Shown: positions 2,192-32,167 of the stretch, piece by piece
Position numbering within the stretch: position 1 is the first letter of the stretch
Layout of the letters: each line of letters begins with the position of its first letter
Origin: a phage
DNA length: 32,167 nucleotides
Strand: one strand, 5' to 3'
Assembly (NCBI GenBank): GCA_021683455.1
Contig: GCA_021683455.1_3051.2
Notes under the pieces: model-generated
Database searches by the model: none
The model's input: only the letters and a program-made list of their open reading frames with translations
Told to the model about the DNA's origin: nothing
Position numbers and translations under genes: made by a program

Positions 2192-2552
2192 ACCGTTGAA
2201 GTATGAATTAAAGCGTCAGATAATTTCTACTGATGTGTTAATAGGTCCTGTGGTAGCCGTATCATTTGTGATTCTGCTGATTGCTGGAATGGTTATAGAC
2301 GTTATGACTGATATTGAATCTGGTGCAATATTTGGAGCAACACTAATTCTTCCATTGGTAGTTCCGCTTTTATTAGTACCTATAAATTGGATAGGATATT
2401 GGTATCAAGGAAGACACTATCGTAAACGTGTACGTGATTGGAAAGCTCAGTGTAAAAAGATTAAAAAGGAACATCAGCTTAAACTTGCTGCGCATGAATT
2501 TGATGAAATTATGAAATTTGTTAAGGAATCACGATGCAAAAGCCAAAACTAA
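2160..2552 (+). CDS. small two-helix membrane protein (e.4-position ORF)
   Basis: First ATG 2160 after AAGGAA (track 2139 is TTG); two hydrophobic segments then basic tail ending FVKESRCKSQN. Confidence 0.55.
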   Translation: MSKPSLYLPSKPLKYELKRQIISTDVLIGPVVAVSFVILLIAGMVIDVMTDIESGAIFGATLILPLVVPLLLVPINWIGYWYQGRHYRKRVRDWKAQCKKIKKEHQLKLAAHEFDEIMKFVKESRCKSQN

Positions 2553-2896
2553 ATAAAGTCAAATATTCGCTTCCTGAGTCATTTTTAATTTTTGCTGTGG
2601 CGTTGGCTGCAGCTCTTGCGGGTAGTCTTTTTGGATTGTTAATTGACTGTATTATTTTAAACATCGACGGCACAGTAAATATAATAGAAGTTTGGAGTGA
2701 ACTTCACTATACTAAAATTATTTCATTATTTTCATTCTTTGGTACCATGTTATATTTTCATTATGATAATTTTAAAATAAATTGGCAAAGAAAAAAGGAT
2801 TACAAAATACAATTAAAGGAATATAACAACTACATGTCTTATATTGAAAAAGAATCAATGGAAGAGTTTGTGAGTGATTGCAGGAAAATTAAATGA
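2534..2896 (+). CDS. small two-helix membrane protein (e.3-position ORF)
   Basis: ATG 2534 after AAGGAA; hydrophobic segments; tail ends FVSDCRKIK; stop overlaps next start (ATGA). Confidence 0.6.
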   Translation: MQKPKLNKVKYSLPESFLIFAVALAAALAGSLFGLLIDCIILNIDGTVNIIEVWSELHYTKIISLFSFFGTMLYFHYDNFKINWQRKKDYKIQLKEYNNYMSYIEKESMEEFVSDCRKIK

Positions 2897-3381
2897 TTTT
2901 AAAAACTCGCTGGTATGATTTAGATGATGGGGATGATGGCATTTCAGTTAATAGAGTTGACTGGAATGGTTGTTCCGAAGATATGAAAAATTTGTTGATT
3001 AGGGAGTTTAGAATGGGATATCAAGCAGCTAAGCCATCTATTATAACAGATGATAAGTTCGTGTGTATTCATAATGGTCGCGCTAAGTTAACGAACGCTG
3101 ATTGGTTCACAGATAAAATTATGATTCTGTGGTATATTATTAGTCTTCCTGTGACATCATTTGTATTTTGCTTCTTTGGTGAAAGTCCAATAGGCAGAAC
3201 AGGAGATTGGATTCTTTTAATTATGCTTGTTAATATTTTGACAGCAGCAATATTATCAGGAATGTGGTGCGTGTTCATTGAAATGCCATGGCGTTTACGC
3301 AGACAGCAAAAGATTTTTGATGAAAAGAAATACGCTCAAAATTTAAATAGCTTTATCACTGAATGCAGGAAATTAAAATGA
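2893..3381 (+). CDS. membrane protein (e.2-position ORF)
   Basis: ATGA overlap with upstream stop; soluble N-terminal part then two hydrophobic helices; tail ends FITECRKLK. Confidence 0.6.
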   Translation: MILKTRWYDLDDGDDGISVNRVDWNGCSEDMKNLLIREFRMGYQAAKPSIITDDKFVCIHNGRAKLTNADWFTDKIMILWYIISLPVTSFVFCFFGESPIGRTGDWILLIMLVNILTAAILSGMWCVFIEMPWRLRRQQKIFDEKKYAQNLNSFITECRKLK

Positions 3382-3818
3382 AAACACTATCAACTGGTAT
3401 TATCTTTATGACAGAAGATAAAGATTTATTTATGGGTCGGGTTACTGGTTCTCGTAAGCCTGGAATGATGGCACATCGCTGGGATATTCCAAAGGGCCGT
3501 GTAGAAAATTCCGATTTAAGCGCATTAGATGCAGCACGAAGAGAATGTTTAGAAGAGACTGGTTTTAGCAATTATAATCCAGACCTTCTAGAAGACCTAG
3601 GTGTATTTAAATATTCTAGTAATAAAGACTTACAGTTATTTTATTATACGATTCCAGTAGAGCATGAGATGTTCAGAAATTGCCATTGCGAGTCTTATTT
3701 TGAAAATAAAGATGGCGTTATGATTCCAGAGATGGACGCTTTTGCTCTTATTCCTCGTACTCAGTGGCAATATGTGATGGGTCCTTCACTTTACCGAATA
3801 ATGAACAACCTCTTTTAA
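3378..3818 (+). CDS. nudE: Nudix hydrolase
   Basis: Nudix box GRVENSDLSALDAARRECLEETGF; ATG 3378 has AGGAA 7 nt upstream and overlaps upstream stop; position next to e as T4 e.1/nudE. Confidence 0.8.
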   Translation: MKTLSTGIIFMTEDKDLFMGRVTGSRKPGMMAHRWDIPKGRVENSDLSALDAARRECLEETGFSNYNPDLLEDLGVFKYSSNKDLQLFYYTIPVEHEMFRNCHCESYFENKDGVMIPEMDAFALIPRTQWQYVMGPSLYRIMNNLF

Positions 3819-4349
<531 letters not shown>

Positions 4350-4353
4350 AGTT

Positions 4354-4384
4354 GTTTACTTTCTCCTAGAATTGTGATAGTATA
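4354..4384 (+). promoter_or_regulatory. early promoter-like element upstream of ip gene (GTTTAC 4354-4359; TAGTAT-like -10)
   Basis: Sequence pattern only. Confidence 0.4.
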
Positions 4385-4437
4385 TTCACAGTTGCTTGAA
4401 GAGACAAATTACTAATTAAAATATTTAAAGGAAACAC

Positions 4438-4707
4438 ATGAAAACATATCAAGAATTTATCACTGAAGCAGCTATTAATTCTCAAATTATTGCTGAATCT
4501 TTTACTGATCTTTTGAAATTTAAAAAAGGTCAAAAAATCACTGCTGTATTGGATGATGGTACAGAAGTTGAGATGGATGTACAGGGATATAATTATGCAG
4601 TAGATGGAAAACTGTATAATAAATCTCATGCTAAATTTGATTCATTTGACGACTTTGTTAATACAGTTGAAGATGAAAAAAACTCGTCGATCCATTGTAA
4701 CTGGTGA
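4438..4707 (+). CDS. internal head protein (IPII/IPIII-like) with capsid-targeting sequence
   Basis: N-terminus MKTYQEFITEA matches the conserved capsid-targeting sequence of T4 internal proteins; AAAGGAAA SD; T4 has ipIII/ipII at this position. Confidence 0.65.
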   Translation: MKTYQEFITEAAINSQIIAESFTDLLKFKKGQKITAVLDDGTEVEMDVQGYNYAVDGKLYNKSHAKFDSFDDFVNTVEDEKNSSIHCNW

Positions 4708-4912
4708 TGCTAAGGTTCTTATGGCACATGGTCATGAACGCATTCGCGCTAAACAGAATAAAATGGGTGAAGATAATTTTGCATTAGTTGGTTATCAATC
4801 TGGTAAACAAACCTATGGTTATCAGCGTACTGCTACCATGTATAATAAAAATGGTAAAATTGCCTTTGTAAATAGTAAAGGTTCTATTCAGTACGTTAAA
4901 TCGTTCAAATAA
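4673..4912 (+). CDS. basic 79-aa ORF overlapping the ip 3' end; separate gene or frameshifted continuation of the ip gene
   Basis: ATG 4673 in +1 frame relative to 4438 ORF, across an A7 run (4676-4682); no capsid-targeting sequence of its own; weak SD. Confidence 0.35.
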   Translation: MKKTRRSIVTGDAKVLMAHGHERIRAKQNKMGEDNFALVGYQSGKQTYGYQRTATMYNKNGKIAFVNSKGSIQYVKSFK

Positions 4913-5049
4913 TATGGGAACAGCCTGGACCTCATTTGAGGTATTCTCGCCAACCTGTGATAAGGTCGAGCCAAAGCGCGGTAATGGGTAATGCAGGAAT
5001 GGACAACTCATGTGCCATGGAATGGCCCAAAAACCTTAAGAGAAATAAT

Positions 5050-12224: not shown

Positions 12225-12782
12225 GTGAGTGAGTCGAAGAGAATCAATATGAAACGATTAGTATTAGAAGTTAGTCCGCTTTTTGGTGAATTGGCTATAG
12301 AAAAAGTAAATAACATGTATCGTTTGACGCAAGAAGACGATATGATGTATTTTACGCCTAGTGAAATCATTCATTTAACCCAAATTGAATATCCTTATAC
12401 TGATAAAATAGTAAGCATCAATGATGAGCACAAAATTCATTTTTATTCTTCATGCCCAGGATTTAATATTAAAAGTGAGTCAATGTGTTTATCAGTTATC
12501 CATTGGGATAGTTTTATAGATAAGATTAAATATTTTTATTATTCTAATGAAAGAAAACATAGTTTAAAATGGTTTAAAAATTGCAATGCTATTATTACTA
12601 ACGCTTGCAATCAGAACGATGAAACTCTTTTAAATGTATCAAAATGTTATGAAGAGGGAGATGTCTTAACTATTCGCCAAATTGACGATTTTCGATCACA
12701 TATTGTCACATTTACCAAAGACGAAGCTATTGCGCTAAAGACTTATCTTGATTCTGTCATTCCAACTATGATTTCAAAGTGA
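12225..12782 (+). CDS. hypothetical protein, first of a tandem paralog pair
   Basis: GTG start 9 nt after AAGGAG (alternative ATG 12249); C-terminus EAIALKTYLDSVIPTM resembles next ORF. Confidence 0.5.
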   Translation: MSESKRINMKRLVLEVSPLFGELAIEKVNNMYRLTQEDDMMYFTPSEIIHLTQIEYPYTDKIVSINDEHKIHFYSSCPGFNIKSESMCLSVIHWDSFIDKIKYFYYSNERKHSLKWFKNCNAIITNACNQNDETLLNVSKCYEEGDVLTIRQIDDFRSHIVTFTKDEAIALKTYLDSVIPTMISK

Positions 12783-12788
12783 GGAAAT

Positions 12789-13310
12789 ATGTTTATTTCA
12801 AGTGGAAGTGGTTTAATTCGCGTTAAATTTAAAAATGACATCTTCCTTAGTCAAGGAGATGATATTATTAAAATGAGTTATGACGAAATAAAGAAAATTT
12901 GTCATATTCTTGAAAGTCGTGGAAAAGGAAATGCTACTATCGATATAGGTGATTTATGGGTGACACTTTATGAAGTATCCGAAGGATTTAACATTGAAGA
13001 TGAAAATAACATTTTAGCTATTGATAAAAGAACTGATTTGCTTGATGTATTAAAAGTTTATGAACAGTCAAATGGTGGAAGAAAAGCTGCATTGATTTAT
13101 CAAAAACCACATTCATGTGGAACTGCTTCAATCATTTCAAATATTGAAGATGAAACTGATACTTATATGTGTGTTTTAAAAGCTGGTGGTGACCGTCATC
13201 CGGATTTTATTTCTATTCGTCAAAACAATGGAGAAATTTCATTATCAAAATCAGAAGCTGAAGCTATGATTAAGTATTTAACAACCGTTACGCCTTCAAT
13301 GAAAGGATAA
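12789..13310 (+). CDS. hypothetical protein, second of a tandem paralog pair
   Basis: GAGGAAA SD; C-terminus EAEAMIKYLTTVTPSM. Confidence 0.55.
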   Translation: MFISSGSGLIRVKFKNDIFLSQGDDIIKMSYDEIKKICHILESRGKGNATIDIGDLWVTLYEVSEGFNIEDENNILAIDKRTDLLDVLKVYEQSNGGRKAALIYQKPHSCGTASIISNIEDETDTYMCVLKAGGDRHPDFISIRQNNGEISLSKSEAEAMIKYLTTVTPSMKG

Positions 13311-13312
13311 TT

Positions 13313-13774
13313 ATGATTATTAATGAAAACTCTTGGCACTATAAATTATTCAAATTGTTTAACGATGAGTGGCAACGACCTAAGACACTATGCGCATATT
13401 TTTGGTCTATTGCCATTCCTACATTTTTCGTTTCTATTTTTGGATGTGCTATACTCGTAGGGCTAACAATTATCTGTGCAGAAAGTTTACAACGTTGGCT
13501 TATTTTCGGTAGTTTATGGACTCTTATTCCATCGGCATTTATACTTGCCATTTTGCTTGTTTTACTTATTATTGGTTCATTTGTTATTCCTGCACAACTG
13601 CATGAAAAATATAAAGATTATAAATGGAAAAAGGATTATGCTTTACATGTAGAAAATATTGATAGGGCGTATAAAGGTTTACCTCCTATTCAACCCAAGA
13701 AATCGATTATCGTTGAATTTTTAAAAGCTCGTAAAGCTAAAGTATGTCCTGTTATTGAATATAAGGCTGAATGA
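13313..13774 (+). CDS. integral membrane protein
   Basis: Two long hydrophobic segments then basic C-terminal tail. Confidence 0.55.
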   Translation: MIINENSWHYKLFKLFNDEWQRPKTLCAYFWSIAIPTFFVSIFGCAILVGLTIICAESLQRWLIFGSLWTLIPSAFILAILLVLLIIGSFVIPAQLHEKYKDYKWKKDYALHVENIDRAYKGLPPIQPKKSIIVEFLKARKAKVCPVIEYKAE

Positions 13775-23543: not shown

Positions 23544-24017
23544 ATGTTATTGACTGGCAAATTATATAAAGAAGAAAAACAGAAATTTTATGATGCACAA
23601 AACGGTAAATGCTTAATTTGCCAACGAGAACTAAATCCTGATGTTCAAGCTAATCACCTTGACCATGACCATGAATTAAATGGACCAAAAGCAGGAAAGG
23701 TACGTGGATTGCTTTGTAATCTCTGTAATGCCGCAGAAGGTCAAATGAAGCATAAATTTAATCGTTCTGGCTTAAAGGGACAAGGTGTTGATTATCTTGA
23801 ATGGTTAGAAAATTTACTTACTTATTTAAAATCCGATTACACCCAAAATAATATTCACCCTAACTTTGTTGGAGATAAATCAAAGGAATTTTCTCGTTTA
23901 GGAAAAGAGGAAATGATGGCCGAGATGCTTCAAAGAGGATTTGAATATAATGAATCTGACACTAAAACACAATTAATAGCTTCATTTAAGAAGCAGCTTA
24001 GAAAGAGTTTAAAATGA
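23544..24017 (+). CDS. 49: recombination endonuclease VII (Holliday-junction resolvase)
   Basis: 157 aa; N-terminal Cys cluster CLICQ...HLDHDHELNG...CNLCN; matches T4 gp49 as I recall it. Confidence 0.9.
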   Translation: MLLTGKLYKEEKQKFYDAQNGKCLICQRELNPDVQANHLDHDHELNGPKAGKVRGLLCNLCNAAEGQMKHKFNRSGLKGQGVDYLEWLENLLTYLKSDYTQNNIHPNFVGDKSKEFSRLGKEEMMAEMLQRGFEYNESDTKTQLIASFKKQLRKSLK

Positions 24018-25831
24018 CAATTGAAAAAGAAATTGAAGGATTGATTCATAAAACTAATAAAGACCTTTTAAACGAGAATGCTAATAAAGATTCTCGTGTT
24101 TTTCCAACTCAACGGGACCTTATGGCTGGTATTGTGTCTAAACACATTGCCAAAAATATGGTCCCGTCTTTTATTATGAAAGCGCATGAAAGCGGAATTA
24201 TTCATTTCCACGATATTGATTATTCCCCTGCTCTTCCATTTACTAATTGTTGTTTAGTAGATTTAAAAGGAATGCTTGAGAACGGATTTAAGCTTGGTAA
24301 TGCACAGATTGAAACTCCTAAATCAATCGGTGTTGCTACTGCAATTATGGCACAAATTACTGCACAGGTTGCTTCCCATCAATACGGCGGAACGACTTTT
24401 GCTAATGTAGATAAAGTACTTTCTCCTTATGTTAAACGCACCTATGCAAAACATATTGAGGATGCAGAAAAATGGCAAATCGCTGATGCGTTGAATTATG
24501 CTCAATCTAAAACAGAAAAAGATGTATACGATGCATTCCAAGCTTATGAATATGAAGTAAATACTCTCTTTAGCTCAAACGGACAAACACCTTTTGTAAC
24601 AATTACATTTGGTACAGGAACTGACTGGACTGAACGAATGATTCAGAAAGCAATTCTGAAAAATCGTATTAAAGGTCTTGGTCGTGATGGGATAACTCCT
24701 ATTTTCCCTAAACTTGTTATGTTCGTTGAAGAAGGTGTTAATCTTTATAAAGACGACCCGAACTATGATATTAAGCAGCTTGCTTTAGAGTGCGCAAGCA
24801 AAAGAATGTATCCTGACATCATTTCGGCTAAGAACAATAAAGCTATCACCGGCTCATCTATTCCTGTTTCTCCAATGGGTTGTCGTAGTTTCTTGAGCGT
24901 ATGGAAAGATTCGACTGGCAATGAAATTCTTGATGGACGTAATAATCTCGGTGTTGTAACACTGAATCTTCCTCGTATCGCATTAGATTCTTATATTGGA
25001 ATACAGTTCAATGAACAGAAATTTGTTGAATTATTCAATGAACGAATGGATTTATGTTTTGAAGCTTTGATGTGTAGAATTAGTTCCTTAAAAGGAGTTA
25101 AAGCGACTGTTGCTCCTATTCTTTACCAAGAAGGTGCATTCGGGGTTCGTCTTAAACCTGATGACGATATAATTGAGTTATTTAAAAATGGCAGAAGTTC
25201 AGTGTCTCTAGGATACATTGGTATTCACGAATTGAATATTCTTGTCGGTCGTGATATTGGACAGGAAATTTTAACTAAAATGAATGCTCGTCTTAAGCAG
25301 TGGACTGAAAGAACCGGATTTGCTTTTAGTTTATATTCGACTCCTGCTGAAAACCTTTGTTATCGCTTCTGTAAACTCGATACCGAAAAATATGGAAGTG
25401 TAAAGGATGTTACCGATAAAGGCTGGTACACTAACAGTTTCCATGTTTCAGTAGAAGAAAATATTACTCCGTTTGAAAAGATTTCTCGCGAAGCGCCGTA
25501 TCATTTCATTGCGACAGGCGGTCACATTTCTTATGTTGAACTTCCAGATATGAAAAACAATTTAAAGGGTCTTGAGGCTGTCTGGGATTATGCTGCACAA
25601 CATTTAGATTATTTTGGTGTTAATATGCCGGTAGATAAATGTTTTACATGCGGAAGTACCCATGAAATGACTCCTACTGAAAACGGATTTGTTTGTTCTA
25701 TCTGTGGAGAAACTGATCCTAAAAAGATGAACACAATAAGAAGAACATGTGGTTATTTGGGAAATCCAAACGAACGTGGATTTAATCTCGGTAAAAATAA
25801 AGAAATCATGCATAGGGTTAAACACCAATGA
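24014..25831 (+). CDS. nrdD: anaerobic (class III) ribonucleoside-triphosphate reductase
   Basis: 605 aa; C-terminal glycyl-radical motif RRTCGYLG and Cys cluster CFTCGS...CSICG; ATGA overlap with gene 49. Confidence 0.97.
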   Translation: MTIEKEIEGLIHKTNKDLLNENANKDSRVFPTQRDLMAGIVSKHIAKNMVPSFIMKAHESGIIHFHDIDYSPALPFTNCCLVDLKGMLENGFKLGNAQIETPKSIGVATAIMAQITAQVASHQYGGTTFANVDKVLSPYVKRTYAKHIEDAEKWQIADALNYAQSKTEKDVYDAFQAYEYEVNTLFSSNGQTPFVTITFGTGTDWTERMIQKAILKNRIKGLGRDGITPIFPKLVMFVEEGVNLYKDDPNYDIKQLALECASKRMYPDIISAKNNKAITGSSIPVSPMGCRSFLSVWKDSTGNEILDGRNNLGVVTLNLPRIALDSYIGIQFNEQKFVELFNERMDLCFEALMCRISSLKGVKATVAPILYQEGAFGVRLKPDDDIIELFKNGRSSVSLGYIGIHELNILVGRDIGQEILTKMNARLKQWTERTGFAFSLYSTPAENLCYRFCKLDTEKYGSVKDVTDKGWYTNSFHVSVEENITPFEKISREAPYHFIATGGHISYVELPDMKNNLKGLEAVWDYAAQHLDYFGVNMPVDKCFTCGSTHEMTPTENGFVCSICGETDPKKMNTIRRTCGYLGNPNERGFNLGKNKEIMHRVKHQ

Positions 25832-26298
25832 ATTATGATAGATTTTATCCTTGCGATTTTGTGAATGGCCCTGGTTGCAGGGTCGTTCTTTTCGTTACAG
25901 GTTGTTTGCATAAATGTGAAGGGTGTTATAATAAATCAACATGGAATGCTAGAAATGGTATTCCATTCACTGGTGAAACACTAGAACAATTAATTGAATG
26001 TTTGAATAATGATTATATAGAAGGATTAACTATAACTGGGGGTGACCCTCTTTATCCTGATAACAGAGACGTGATTCACTCTGTTGTTCAAACTATTAAA
26101 AATCTTTATCCCAATAAAAGCATTTGGTTGTGGACAGGATATAAGTTTGAAGATATTAAACAACTAGAAATGCTTAAATATGTTGATGTTATTATTGATG
26201 GGAAGTATGAGAAAAATCTTCCGACTAAAAAGCTGTGGCGAGGATCAGATAATCAGCGACTTTGGTCAAATACCGATGGGGTGTGGACACATGATTAA
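25828..26298 (+). CDS. nrdG: anaerobic RNR activating enzyme (radical SAM)
   Basis: 156 aa; Cys motif CLHKCEGC; ATGA overlap with nrdD stop. Confidence 0.93.
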   Translation: MNYDRFYPCDFVNGPGCRVVLFVTGCLHKCEGCYNKSTWNARNGIPFTGETLEQLIECLNNDYIEGLTITGGDPLYPDNRDVIHSVVQTIKNLYPNKSIWLWTGYKFEDIKQLEMLKYVDVIIDGKYEKNLPTKKLWRGSDNQRLWSNTDGVWTHD

Positions 26299-29062: not shown

Positions 29063-29140
29063 CTGATATCCTCTATGCTTTAAGATAGATCTTCAAATAT
29101 TATGATATAATAGATCTATGAATTGAGCTAAGAGGTGAAA

Positions 29141-29698
29141 ATGTCAGAAACTAAGCCTAAATATAATTACGTAAACAATAAAGAGCTTTTACAAGCTATT
29201 ATTGATTGGAAAACAGAATTAGCAAATAATAAAGACCCAAATAAAGTAGTTCGTCAGAATGATACTATCGGATTAGCCATTATGCTTATTGCAGAAGGCT
29301 TATCTAAACGTTTCAACTTTTCAGGATACACCCAGTCCTGGAAACAAGAAATGATTGCAGATGGTATAGAAGCTTCTATTAAGGGGCTTCACAATTTTGA
29401 TGAAACGAAATATAAAAACCCACATGCATATATAACTCAAGCTTGTTTTAATGCATTCGTCCAGCGTATTAAAAAAGAACGTAAGGAAGTTGCAAAGAAA
29501 TATAGTTACTTCGTTCACAATGTCTATGACAGCCGTGACGACGATATGGTTGCGTTAGTAGATGAAACTTTTATTCAAGACATCTACGATAAAATGACGC
29601 ATTACGAAGAATCAACCTATAGAACACCGGGGGCTGAAAAGAAAAGTGTTGTAGACGATTCTCCTAGTTTGGATTTTTTATATGAGGCTAACGATTAA
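29141..29698 (+). CDS. 55: late-transcription sigma factor gp55
   Basis: 185 aa from ATG 29141 (AGAGG SD; track 29135 is GTG); matches T4 gp55 size and N-terminus as I recall it. Confidence 0.88.
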
Positions 29699-30391: not shown

Positions 30392-30565
30392 AAGATGAAC
30401 ACCCAGACTTCTGAAATAGATTATAATAAAATTCGTTCCTCTAAAGAGGAAATGATGAGACGCTTTAAAGAGTCTCATGATAAAGCTAAAGCAGAAGGAA
30501 CTATAACATATAAGCGCATAAAATTTAAAAGTTCTAACGAGCCTCTATATGGCGTATTATGCGGA

Positions 30566-30583
30566 TAGGAGCTTCGGCTCCTA
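30566..30583 (+). terminator. TAGGAGC-TTCG-GCTCCTA hairpin upstream of agt (no U-tract)
   Basis: 7-bp stem with UUCG loop. Confidence 0.4.
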
Positions 30584-30634
30584 TATTGCTTTATAAATTT
30601 TTGGTAAAATAAACCAAAACAAAGAGGATATTAA

Positions 30635-31837
30635 ATGAAAGTATGTATTTTTATGGCTCGAGGTCTTGAAGGTTGTGGTGTAACTAAATTTTCTCTTGAG
30701 CAACGTGATTGGTTTATTAAAAATGGTCATGAAGTAACTTTGGTTTATGCTAAAGATAAATCATTTACTCGTAATTGTGCGCATGATTATAAATCATTTT
30801 CAATTCCGGTTTTATTGGCAAAAGAATATGATAAAACACTTAAGCTGGTAAATGATTGTGATATTCTAATTATCAATTCAGTTCCTGCTACTTCGGTTGA
30901 AGAAGACACCATCAATAACTATAAAAAAATTATTGATAACATTAAACCTTCTGTTCGTGTTGTAGTTTATCAGCATGACCATTCTTCTCTTTCTTTGCGT
31001 CGAAATTTGGGATTAGAAGAAACTGTTCGTCGAGCTGATGTTATTTTTAGCCATTCTGATAATGGTGATTTTAATAAAGTTCTGATGAAAGAATGGTATC
31101 CAGAAACAGTTTCTCTGTTTGATGATATTGAAGAAGCACCGACAGTATATAATTTTCAGCCTCCTATGGATATTGCGAAGGTTCGGTCAACCTACTGGAA
31201 AGATGTTTCTGAAATTAACATGAATATCAACCGTTGGATTGGTCGTACGACTACATGGAAAGGTTTTTATCAGATGTTTGATTTTCACGAAAAACATCTT
31301 AAACCTGCAGGACTAAGTACTATTATGGAAGGTCTGGAACGTTCTCCAGCGTTCATTCCTATTAAAGAAAAAGGAATTCCATACGAGTATTATCGTCTTC
31401 ATCAAGTAGACCAAATTAAAATTGCTCCTAATTTGCCAACGCAAATTCTTGACCGTTATGTAAATAGCGAAATGCTTGAACGCATGAGTAAATCCGGATT
31501 TGGTTATCAACTGAGTAAGTTGGACAAAAAATATTTACAACGTTCTTTAGAATATACTCATCTCGAGCTTGGTGCATGTGGAACAATTCCGGTATTTTGG
31601 AAATCTACTGGCGAAAATTTAAAATTCCGTGTTGATAATACTCCGCTAATTTCGCATGATAGCGGTATCGTTTGGTTTGATGAAAATGACATGGAATCAA
31701 CATTTGAACGTATTAAAGAACTGTCATCTGACCGAGCTCTTTATGACCGTGAACGCGAAAAAGCTTATGAATTTTTGTATCAGCACCAAGATTCAAGCTT
31801 CTGCTTTAAAGAGCAGTTTGACATTATTACAAAATAA
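30635..31837 (+). CDS. agt: DNA alpha-glucosyltransferase (glucosylates hydroxymethylcytosine)
   Basis: 400 aa closely matching T4 alpha-glucosyltransferase as I recall it (…ICIFMARGLEGCGVTKFSLEQRDWFIKNGHEVTLVYAKDK…); AAGAGGA SD; terminator follows. Confidence 0.92.
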   Translation: MKVCIFMARGLEGCGVTKFSLEQRDWFIKNGHEVTLVYAKDKSFTRNCAHDYKSFSIPVLLAKEYDKTLKLVNDCDILIINSVPATSVEEDTINNYKKIIDNIKPSVRVVVYQHDHSSLSLRRNLGLEETVRRADVIFSHSDNGDFNKVLMKEWYPETVSLFDDIEEAPTVYNFQPPMDIAKVRSTYWKDVSEINMNINRWIGRTTTWKGFYQMFDFHEKHLKPAGLSTIMEGLERSPAFIPIKEKGIPYEYYRLHQVDQIKIAPNLPTQILDRYVNSEMLERMSKSGFGYQLSKLDKKYLQRSLEYTHLELGACGTIPVFWKSTGENLKFRVDNTPLISHDSGIVWFDENDMESTFERIKELSSDRALYDREREKAYEFLYQHQDSSFCFKEQFDIITK

Positions 31838-31853
31838 AGGGCTTCGGCCCTTT
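31836..31853 (+). terminator. hairpin/terminator after agt (AAAGGGC-TTCG-GCCCTTT)
   Basis: 7-bp stem with UUCG loop; U residues partly within stem. Confidence 0.55.
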
Positions 31854-31876
31854 AGCTTTATACGGAGTTTGATATA

Positions 31877-32017
31877 ATGATATTTCTTGGATATGTGATT
31901 CTTTTTCTTGCATTTTATCTATTCACTAGAGCATGTTGGATTGGATTCTTTAGCACTCCAGATGGATTTATTTCAATAATTTTATTTTGCATTTCAATGA
32001 CGGTTCTTGATATATGA
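31877..32017 (+). CDS. small hydrophobic protein (46 aa)
   Basis: GGAG SD then ATG 31877; single transmembrane-like segment. Confidence 0.4.
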   Translation: MIFLGYVILFLAFYLFTRACWIGFFSTPDGFISIILFCISMTVLDI

Positions 32018-32167
32018 AAAAATATATAACTTATTTAACAATATATAGTGGAGATAAACTTCCTCCTTTTTATATTGGATCTACGTCTTTAGATAGGCAT
32101 TTAGCTGGATATCATGGTTCAGTTTTATCTAAAAAGTATAAGAAAATTTATAATAAAGAGCTTTCAG
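32014..32167 (+). CDS. GIY-YIG nuclease-like protein, N-terminal fragment (runs off window end)
   Basis: ATGA overlap; TYLTIYSGDKLPPFYIGSTSLDRHLAGYH fits GIY-x9-YIGS-x-x-L-x-x-R-x-x-x-H spacing of GIY-YIG domain. Confidence 0.5.
   Translation, partial: MKKYITYLTIYSGDKLPPFYIGSTSLDRHLAGYHGSVLSKKYKKIYNKELS

Follow-up and report, generated by a model that had tools for sequence, protein, structure and literature searches.

The stretch of phage DNA that we analyzed, a window of 32,167 nt, breaks off inside an open reading frame (ORF) at 32014-32167 (+ strand), and the question raised by this locus is what gene begins there, downstream of the glucosyltransferase gene agt. The first-pass annotation had seen in it a GIY-YIG nuclease-like ORF and, knowing of no homing endonuclease at this place in T4, had suspected a strain-specific mobile insertion. 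We find that a homing endonuclease gene of the T4 Seg type, free-standing and without an intron, very probably begins in these 154 nt (51 codons); it would home by cleavage of alleles that lack it.

The window is a Tequatrovirus (T4-like) segment that runs antiparallel to the T4 map, and its final 6 kb are 98.3% identical to the nearest GenBank phage. Gene 55 (29135-29698) lies upstream of homologues of a-gt.5 to a-gt.2, which are positioned between it and agt (30635-31837, + strand); according to the ORF list and the T4 annotation the latter encodes the 400-aa DNA alpha-glucosyltransferase, and its position fixes the locus as the a-gt/47.1/47 region of T4. A very stable, GC-rich RNA hairpin (GGGC-UUCG-GCCC) extends over the agt stop codon (31835-31854, + strand; -13.1 kcal/mol, z -2.84), is kept in T4, bears a terminator annotation in some relatives, e.g., GiZh, and parts agt from the unit formed by 47.1, the endonuclease gene and gene 47. 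The 46-aa homologue of gene 47.1 (31877-32017, + strand; phrog_6693, E 1.5e-31), whose T4 product is annotated as a predicted membrane protein, forms the upstream flank of the insertion site. The ORF under study opens with an ATG at 32014-32016 that overlaps the TGA stop of 47.1 as ATGA, and it continues without a stop through the window end; the translation given in the first-pass annotation, MKKYITYLTIYSGDKLPPFYIGSTSLDRHLAGYHGSVLSKKYKKIYNKELS, is exact. T4 indeed has no homing endonuclease here, its 47.1 overlapping gene 47 directly by an equal ATGA.

Several mobile elements of T4 are missing from the window. The interval from a-gt.2 to agt (30395-30635) has no mobB. In the nrdD-nrdG region (24014-26298), nrdD is one 605-codon ORF and therefore has no I-TevII intron, and nrdG adjoins it, so that mobC is absent as well. 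The mobD slot (12225-13774) holds a second y05I-like (mobD.1) paralogue together with a 153-aa ORF of no clear family. The truncated seg-type gene at the end is the sole homing endonuclease gene that we recognized in the window.

The window covers 51 of 207 codons, and the rest of the protein is known from near-identical relatives, which complete the ORF, as had been proposed, to 624 nt (207 aa) between 47.1 and gene 47. The closest of them, OR958571, has the 207-codon ORF at 4315-4938 (L001), with its stop 23 nt into gene 47. Of six close relatives compared, five (OR958571 and four other intact copies) are identical to the 154 nt of the window, and the sixth, SH-2, shows 7 differences. A megablast search with the last 468 nt of the window found 504 phage records, only 69 of which spanned the ORF part. 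Two haplotypes of the full gene are separated by 17 synonymous versus 4 non-synonymous differences, a rough dN/dS of ∼0.06 that, on sequence comparison, points to strong purifying selection on the endonuclease gene. We also considered a chance ORF, which is ruled out by the intact 207-codon frame in the relatives and by this excess of synonymous differences.

Alignment of T4, OR958571 and the window reveals a clean 601-nt insert at the 47.1/47 junction, and T4, T2, T6, RB32 and RB51 are all without the endonuclease gene. The insert is flanked by a 7-nt repeat, ATGAAAA, whose 5' copy lies at 32014-32020 (+ strand) according to junction alignments of 13 phages. This repeat is the start of gene 47 in phages without the insert, so the endonuclease gene has taken over the start site of gene 47, which in carriers restarts inside the endonuclease 3' end, 23 nt before its stop. 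We took presence/absence counts from GenBank phage records rather than from IMG/VR, where exact-pattern scans for both junction types gave 6 instances without the gene and none with it and were uninformative. In GenBank the comparison of the agt-47 junction recommended earlier resolves into a presence/absence difference, with 465 records having an uninterrupted 47.1/47 junction and 72 carrying the 601-nt insert; this also disposes of the concern that the ORF might be present in all relatives with a non-nuclease role. Carriers make up ∼13% of Tequatrovirus records, and with roughly one close T4 relative in eight having it just 5' of gene 47, the gene is a real but ordinary phage mobile element. 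The arrangement is that of Seg-type genes, intergenic and present or absent at a single site, with no Rfam intron in the window. The suspected strain-specific mobile insertion thus corresponds to a clean indel absent from T4, for which comparative genomics suggests mobility.

The flanks of the insert were compared between six carriers and seven non-carriers. Codons 3-6 of gene 47 read ATA CTA AAC TTG in all six carriers and ATT TTA AAT TTA in six of the seven non-carriers, four differences that are all synonymous. The seventh non-carrier, BCPEco_001 (PV295200; L024, 2060-2090), combines an empty junction with the carrier-type codons, and the same empty variant is found in three more phages (PV368562, PQ356294 and KX130862), SHFML-26 among them. 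Judged by its sequence, this variant is exactly the expected product of a deletion between the two copies of ATGAAAA, and it fits either precise loss through these repeats or a pre-existing resistant allele. Among the six carriers we found no extended shared haplotype around the insert, the four synonymous sites in codons 3-6 being the only ones strictly associated with it; less than 100 nt upstream of the insert the carriers already differ from one another, and we therefore see no sign of recent co-conversion tracts.

Another optional insert occurs in this neighborhood, between 46.1 and 46, in T2 (L020, 3529-4143, annotated as a homing endonuclease), T6 (L021) and BCPEco_001 (L024, 3529 to the end), and RB51 (L023) has the same divergent 46.1/46 block, unannotated. 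In the other relatives aligned, gene 46 comes after 46.1 without an extra ORF (directly in T4 and RB32). The 46.1/46 insert results in a sharp two-haplotype block ∼1.45 kb past the start of gene 47.

What the 207-aa protein is can be judged from its sequence to a limited degree. The sole Pfam match is GIY-YIG (PF01541) with 21.4 bits (E 3e-4), which does not reach the gathering threshold of 22.6 bits, and the same family is found in 9 of 31 homologues at E ≤ 0.01 (best 2.4e-5). Searches of the PDB with the protein (phmmer) gave spurious ribosomal-protein matches only, a search of PDB sequences with the family profile (hmmsearch) gave none, and an NCBIfam search gave no meaningful match. An hhalign comparison of the family with residues 1-97 of I-TevI, whose query sequence we confirmed against 1MK0 and 1LN0, was weak (E 0.34) and placed E75 opposite I-TevI E75. 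Membership in the GIY-YIG superfamily is therefore marginal at the sequence level, and because sequence alone was unable to place the domain, structure prediction was needed. Among PHROGs the protein matches phrog_314, described as a homing endonuclease (E 5e-18), and also phrog_10820, labelled as an HNH endonuclease.

The AlphaFold2 model, built with 31 homologues, has pLDDT values of >90 across residues 1-95 and the beta-beta-alpha-alpha-beta-alpha topology of the GIY-YIG alpha/beta fold, of which the 51 codons in the window encode β1 (4-11), β2 (19-25), the GY-x-GS loop and the first residues of helix 43-52. The top three Foldseek matches of the model are all I-TevI (probability 0.92-0.99), followed by PD-T4-3, Eco29kI, UvrC, T4 EndoII and Slx1. 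The GIY-YIG nuclease likeness noticed in the first 51 codons is thus borne out by an N-terminal fold of the I-TevI type, and the rest of the catalytic core, which might have been missing, is present in the full-length relatives. Beyond the N-terminal GIY-YIG domain of ∼95 aa, the architecture comprises a flexible linker with one degenerate NUMOD3-like motif (NHPLYGSH) and a small, presumably DNA-binding module at the C terminus. NUMOD3 is found by Pfam in 16 of the 31 homologues, whereas the 207-aa protein itself has no Pfam NUMOD3 match at E ≤ 1, and residues 160-190 form a confident mini-domain in the model with no PDB match.

The motifs are those of a particular subtype. The GIY-x9-YIGS spacing read from the truncated ORF holds for its second half, since YIGS is literal and invariant in the homologues, but a literal GIY is absent and the nearest equivalent is TIY-x8-YIGS. 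The first motif is Y7-L-T9-I-Y11, 8 residues ahead of YIG; its invariant Y7, T9 and Y11 sit on model strand 4-11, whereas the superfamily has its GIY on the first strand 10-11 residues before YIG, and either Y7 or Y11 may be the counterpart of I-TevI Y6. Y20-I21-G22(-S23) sits on model strand 19-25. Residues Y7, T9, Y11, G13, P17 and Y20-I-G-S are invariant among the 31 homologues, as are E75 and N92, which lie past the window end, were checked in the 207-aa relatives and correspond to the catalytic Glu (E75) and, plausibly, Asn (N90) of I-TevI. The downstream Arg and His residues to which the first-pass annotation had pointed exist as R28, H29 and H34 but vary within the family. Among the 31 homologues, 74% have K or R at position 28 (K14/R9/N6/Q1/E1) and 12 have H at position 34, so these residues cannot stand for the canonical catalytic Arg and His. 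Column 28 is thus too variable to represent the catalytic Arg on the helix after YIG (R27 in I-TevI), and the sole universally basic column is R68 (R29/K2 in the 31 homologues). In T4 SegA, SegB and SegC the Arg position likewise lacks a basic residue. Site-specific homing has been proven experimentally for SegB (PMC2330249), and since this enzyme has the same architecture, we regard the missing Arg as a feature of the subtype, not as a sign of inactivity. The protein is accordingly a Seg-type GIY-YIG enzyme of a subtype with a short first helix and an unconserved canonical Arg.

Its relationship to the Seg proteins is seen directly in profile searches. In a five-sequence database the family profile matched SegC (E 1.9e-7), SegB (1.4e-4) and SegA (7.7e-4), with SegF giving a marginal C-terminal match only (E 0.004) and its catalytic domain unmatched. 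When six-frame ORFs from the first 100 kb of T4 were searched, the best match (E 2.2e-5) fell at the segC coordinates, the next two having E values of 0.0046 and 0.045. Like SegA, SegB and SegC, the gene is intergenic, intron-less and ∼200 codons long in a T-even genome, has a patchy spread among close relatives and belongs to a family in which 16 of 31 homologues have a NUMOD3-type region. The proteins share an invariant Glu and an invariant Asn in the N-terminal domain and the order Y-x-(T/I)-x-... YIG, then (D)GY-x-GS after ∼10 residues, then K-K-Y, with YIG-x(8-10)-(D)GY-x-GS...KKY as the common block; in addition, the C-terminal IPEGWFKGR of SegB resembles GPEWTKGK of the 207-aa protein (P-E-G-W-x-K-G). 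Sequence similarity to those three is only distant, this protein falls below Pfam NUMOD3 detection, and the insertion site is 47.1/47 as opposed to 5.1/5.3, the tRNA cluster and uvsX/b-gt for SegC, SegB and SegA. [quoted passage not shown] I-TevI, however, is intron-encoded, its GIY is literal, and its longer first helix bears the essential R27; in our protein the segment from YIG to GY-x-GS is ∼8 residues shorter and the basic residue is not conserved, identity is ∼20%, and zinc-finger or helix-turn-helix modules were not detected in the 207 aa.

Four further genera of the Straboviridae have homologues with ∼50-70% identity, in the same orientation and immediately 5' of gene 47; they are represented by Klebsiella phage KP185 (Jiaodavirus), IME08 (Dhakavirus; NC_014260, L006), Aeromonas phage L9-6 (Biquartavirus) and AV109 (Mosigvirus), in each of which the gene is directly upstream of gene 47; that of IME08 is intact and unannotated. 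Upstream neighbors of the homologues differ between genera. Four of the five genera show an overlap between the C-terminal codons (H/Y)-E-N and the gene 47 start, ATGAAAAT, and in the fifth the gene abuts gene 47. More distant relatives have only the nuclease domain in common and lie at other loci, as expected for modular homing endonucleases. We note that the RefSeq record of IME08 extends the gp47 CDS (2321-3424) 5' into the homologue ORF (∼1795-2420); the true gene 47 start is likely ATGAAAATACTAAAC, ∼80 nt further downstream.

A search around the ORF for the T4 late-promoter consensus (TATAAATA) found none nearer than 10276, and a scan for sigma-70-type promoters gave nothing above shuffled expectation. 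Hairpins that sequester the ribosome-binding site are known for mobE and I-TevI; RNA folding at the endonuclease start and at the new gene 47 start yielded no significant structure (z +0.9 at both), so control of that kind is not supported here. Cotranscription with 47.1, 47 and 46 combined with translational coupling would be the simplest reading. Elsewhere in the window, two exact copies of the late-promoter consensus, 13 nt apart, stand at 3821-3841, just 5' of a 164-codon ORF (3855-4349).

The translation start used by the endonuclease ORF is that of gene 47 in T4, coupled to the stop of 47.1 by ATGA. We hypothesize that in a mixed infection the enzyme would cut the gene-less allele within the conserved 5' end of gene 47 or close to it. 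Codons 6-10 there specify G-D-W-H, which we take to be metal-binding motif I of the Mre11/SbcD nucleases. Recombinational repair from the carrier genome would then copy the gene with short flanking tracts into the cut genome, and carrier genomes would be protected because the insert splits the proposed site; carriers also have the four synonymous changes in codons 3-6. Cleavage, target and mobility are proposed here by analogy with SegB and with SegF and SegG of T4, the latter two cited in PMC2993671 as agents of intron-less homing with marker exclusion. As in the SegF/SegG case, the cut would fall in the gene-less allele of a neighboring essential gene, and repair would coconvert the flanks.

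Other explanations of the ORF differ in how much of this evidence they accommodate. RefSeq product names and the description of PHROG 10820 make the identical protein an HNH endonuclease, an identity that is exceedingly improbable and that we rejected: no HNH Pfam family matches at E ≤ 1, the structural matches are GIY-YIG and the UniRef name is "GIY-YIG domain-containing protein", so that the lack of an HNH signature together with the GIY-YIG fold makes the label a propagated family mislabel. It is also very unlikely that the ORF of this particular genome is a decaying pseudogene, truncated or frameshifted past the window end. The window stops at codon 51 and 3 of ∼72 relatives are broken, KNP5 (KX452698/NC_055713) by an internal deletion and ERS-1 (PP337211) and ESh16 (ON528726) aligning in several pieces, but its 154 nt match the intact copies of five relatives exactly and ∼69 of the 72 copies look intact. 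Such deleted or frameshifted copies fit the gain-decay-loss cycle of homing endonuclease genes.

The conserved placement and the overlap with the gene 47 start across genera would also be compatible with an accessory gene that is stably resident, that is, a domesticated GIY-YIG protein that no longer homes and could serve as a regulator, as a nuclease that excludes competitors in general or as the supplier of the gene 47 start, being retained because gene 47 expression now depends on the endonuclease ORF. The overlap of the (H/Y)-E-N codons with the gene 47 start in four genera and the abutting gene in a fifth, the strong purifying selection and the lack of a long coconversion haplotype around the insert are in keeping with such residency, and T4 SegD is a Seg protein that, according to a title cited in PMC10448857, is reported not to home its own gene. 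We nevertheless consider it unlikely, since the gene sits in so few Tequatrovirus records at an otherwise conserved junction, decayed copies and empty sites with carrier-type codons exist, and gene-less phages express gene 47 from the same site. A homing endonuclease gene of the Seg type thus remains our preferred reading. Within it, we raise as a tentative and rather unlikely possibility that the homologues make up a distinct, unnamed Seg lineage specialized for the gene 47 5' end in at least five Straboviridae genera, its own C-terminal codons doubling as the gene 47 start region, so that a selfish gene supplies its neighbor's translation start. If so, the target would be an Mre11/SbcD-like recombination nuclease, and a cut at this place in a competitor would promote homing and at the same time disable the nuclease of that competitor. 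The rare empty sites with carrier-type codons would then be scars left by precise loss and resistant to cleavage. A review of mobile DNA in T4 describes gp46/gp47 as "possibly" involved in homing repair (PMC2988022).

The identical protein is already present in dozens of GenBank records, labelled "hypothetical", "putative homing endonuclease" or "HNH endonuclease", and our literature search for a named seg gene at the 47.1/47 locus found no paper naming or testing it. The gene is thus an uncharacterized addition to a well-known kind, of low novelty, and leaves general understanding unchanged. It corrects annotation in two respects, the RefSeq name "HNH endonuclease" and the IME08 record, which misses the ORF and overextends gp47. 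For the T-even phages it adds one more optional Seg-type gene to the repertoire, at a 47.1/47 site that is empty in T4, T2 and T6, and it explains a local mosaic breakpoint beside the recombination nuclease genes. The 72 carriers, the 465 non-carriers and the few sites that are empty but altered together form a natural series bearing on target recognition and on the gain, decay and loss of such genes.
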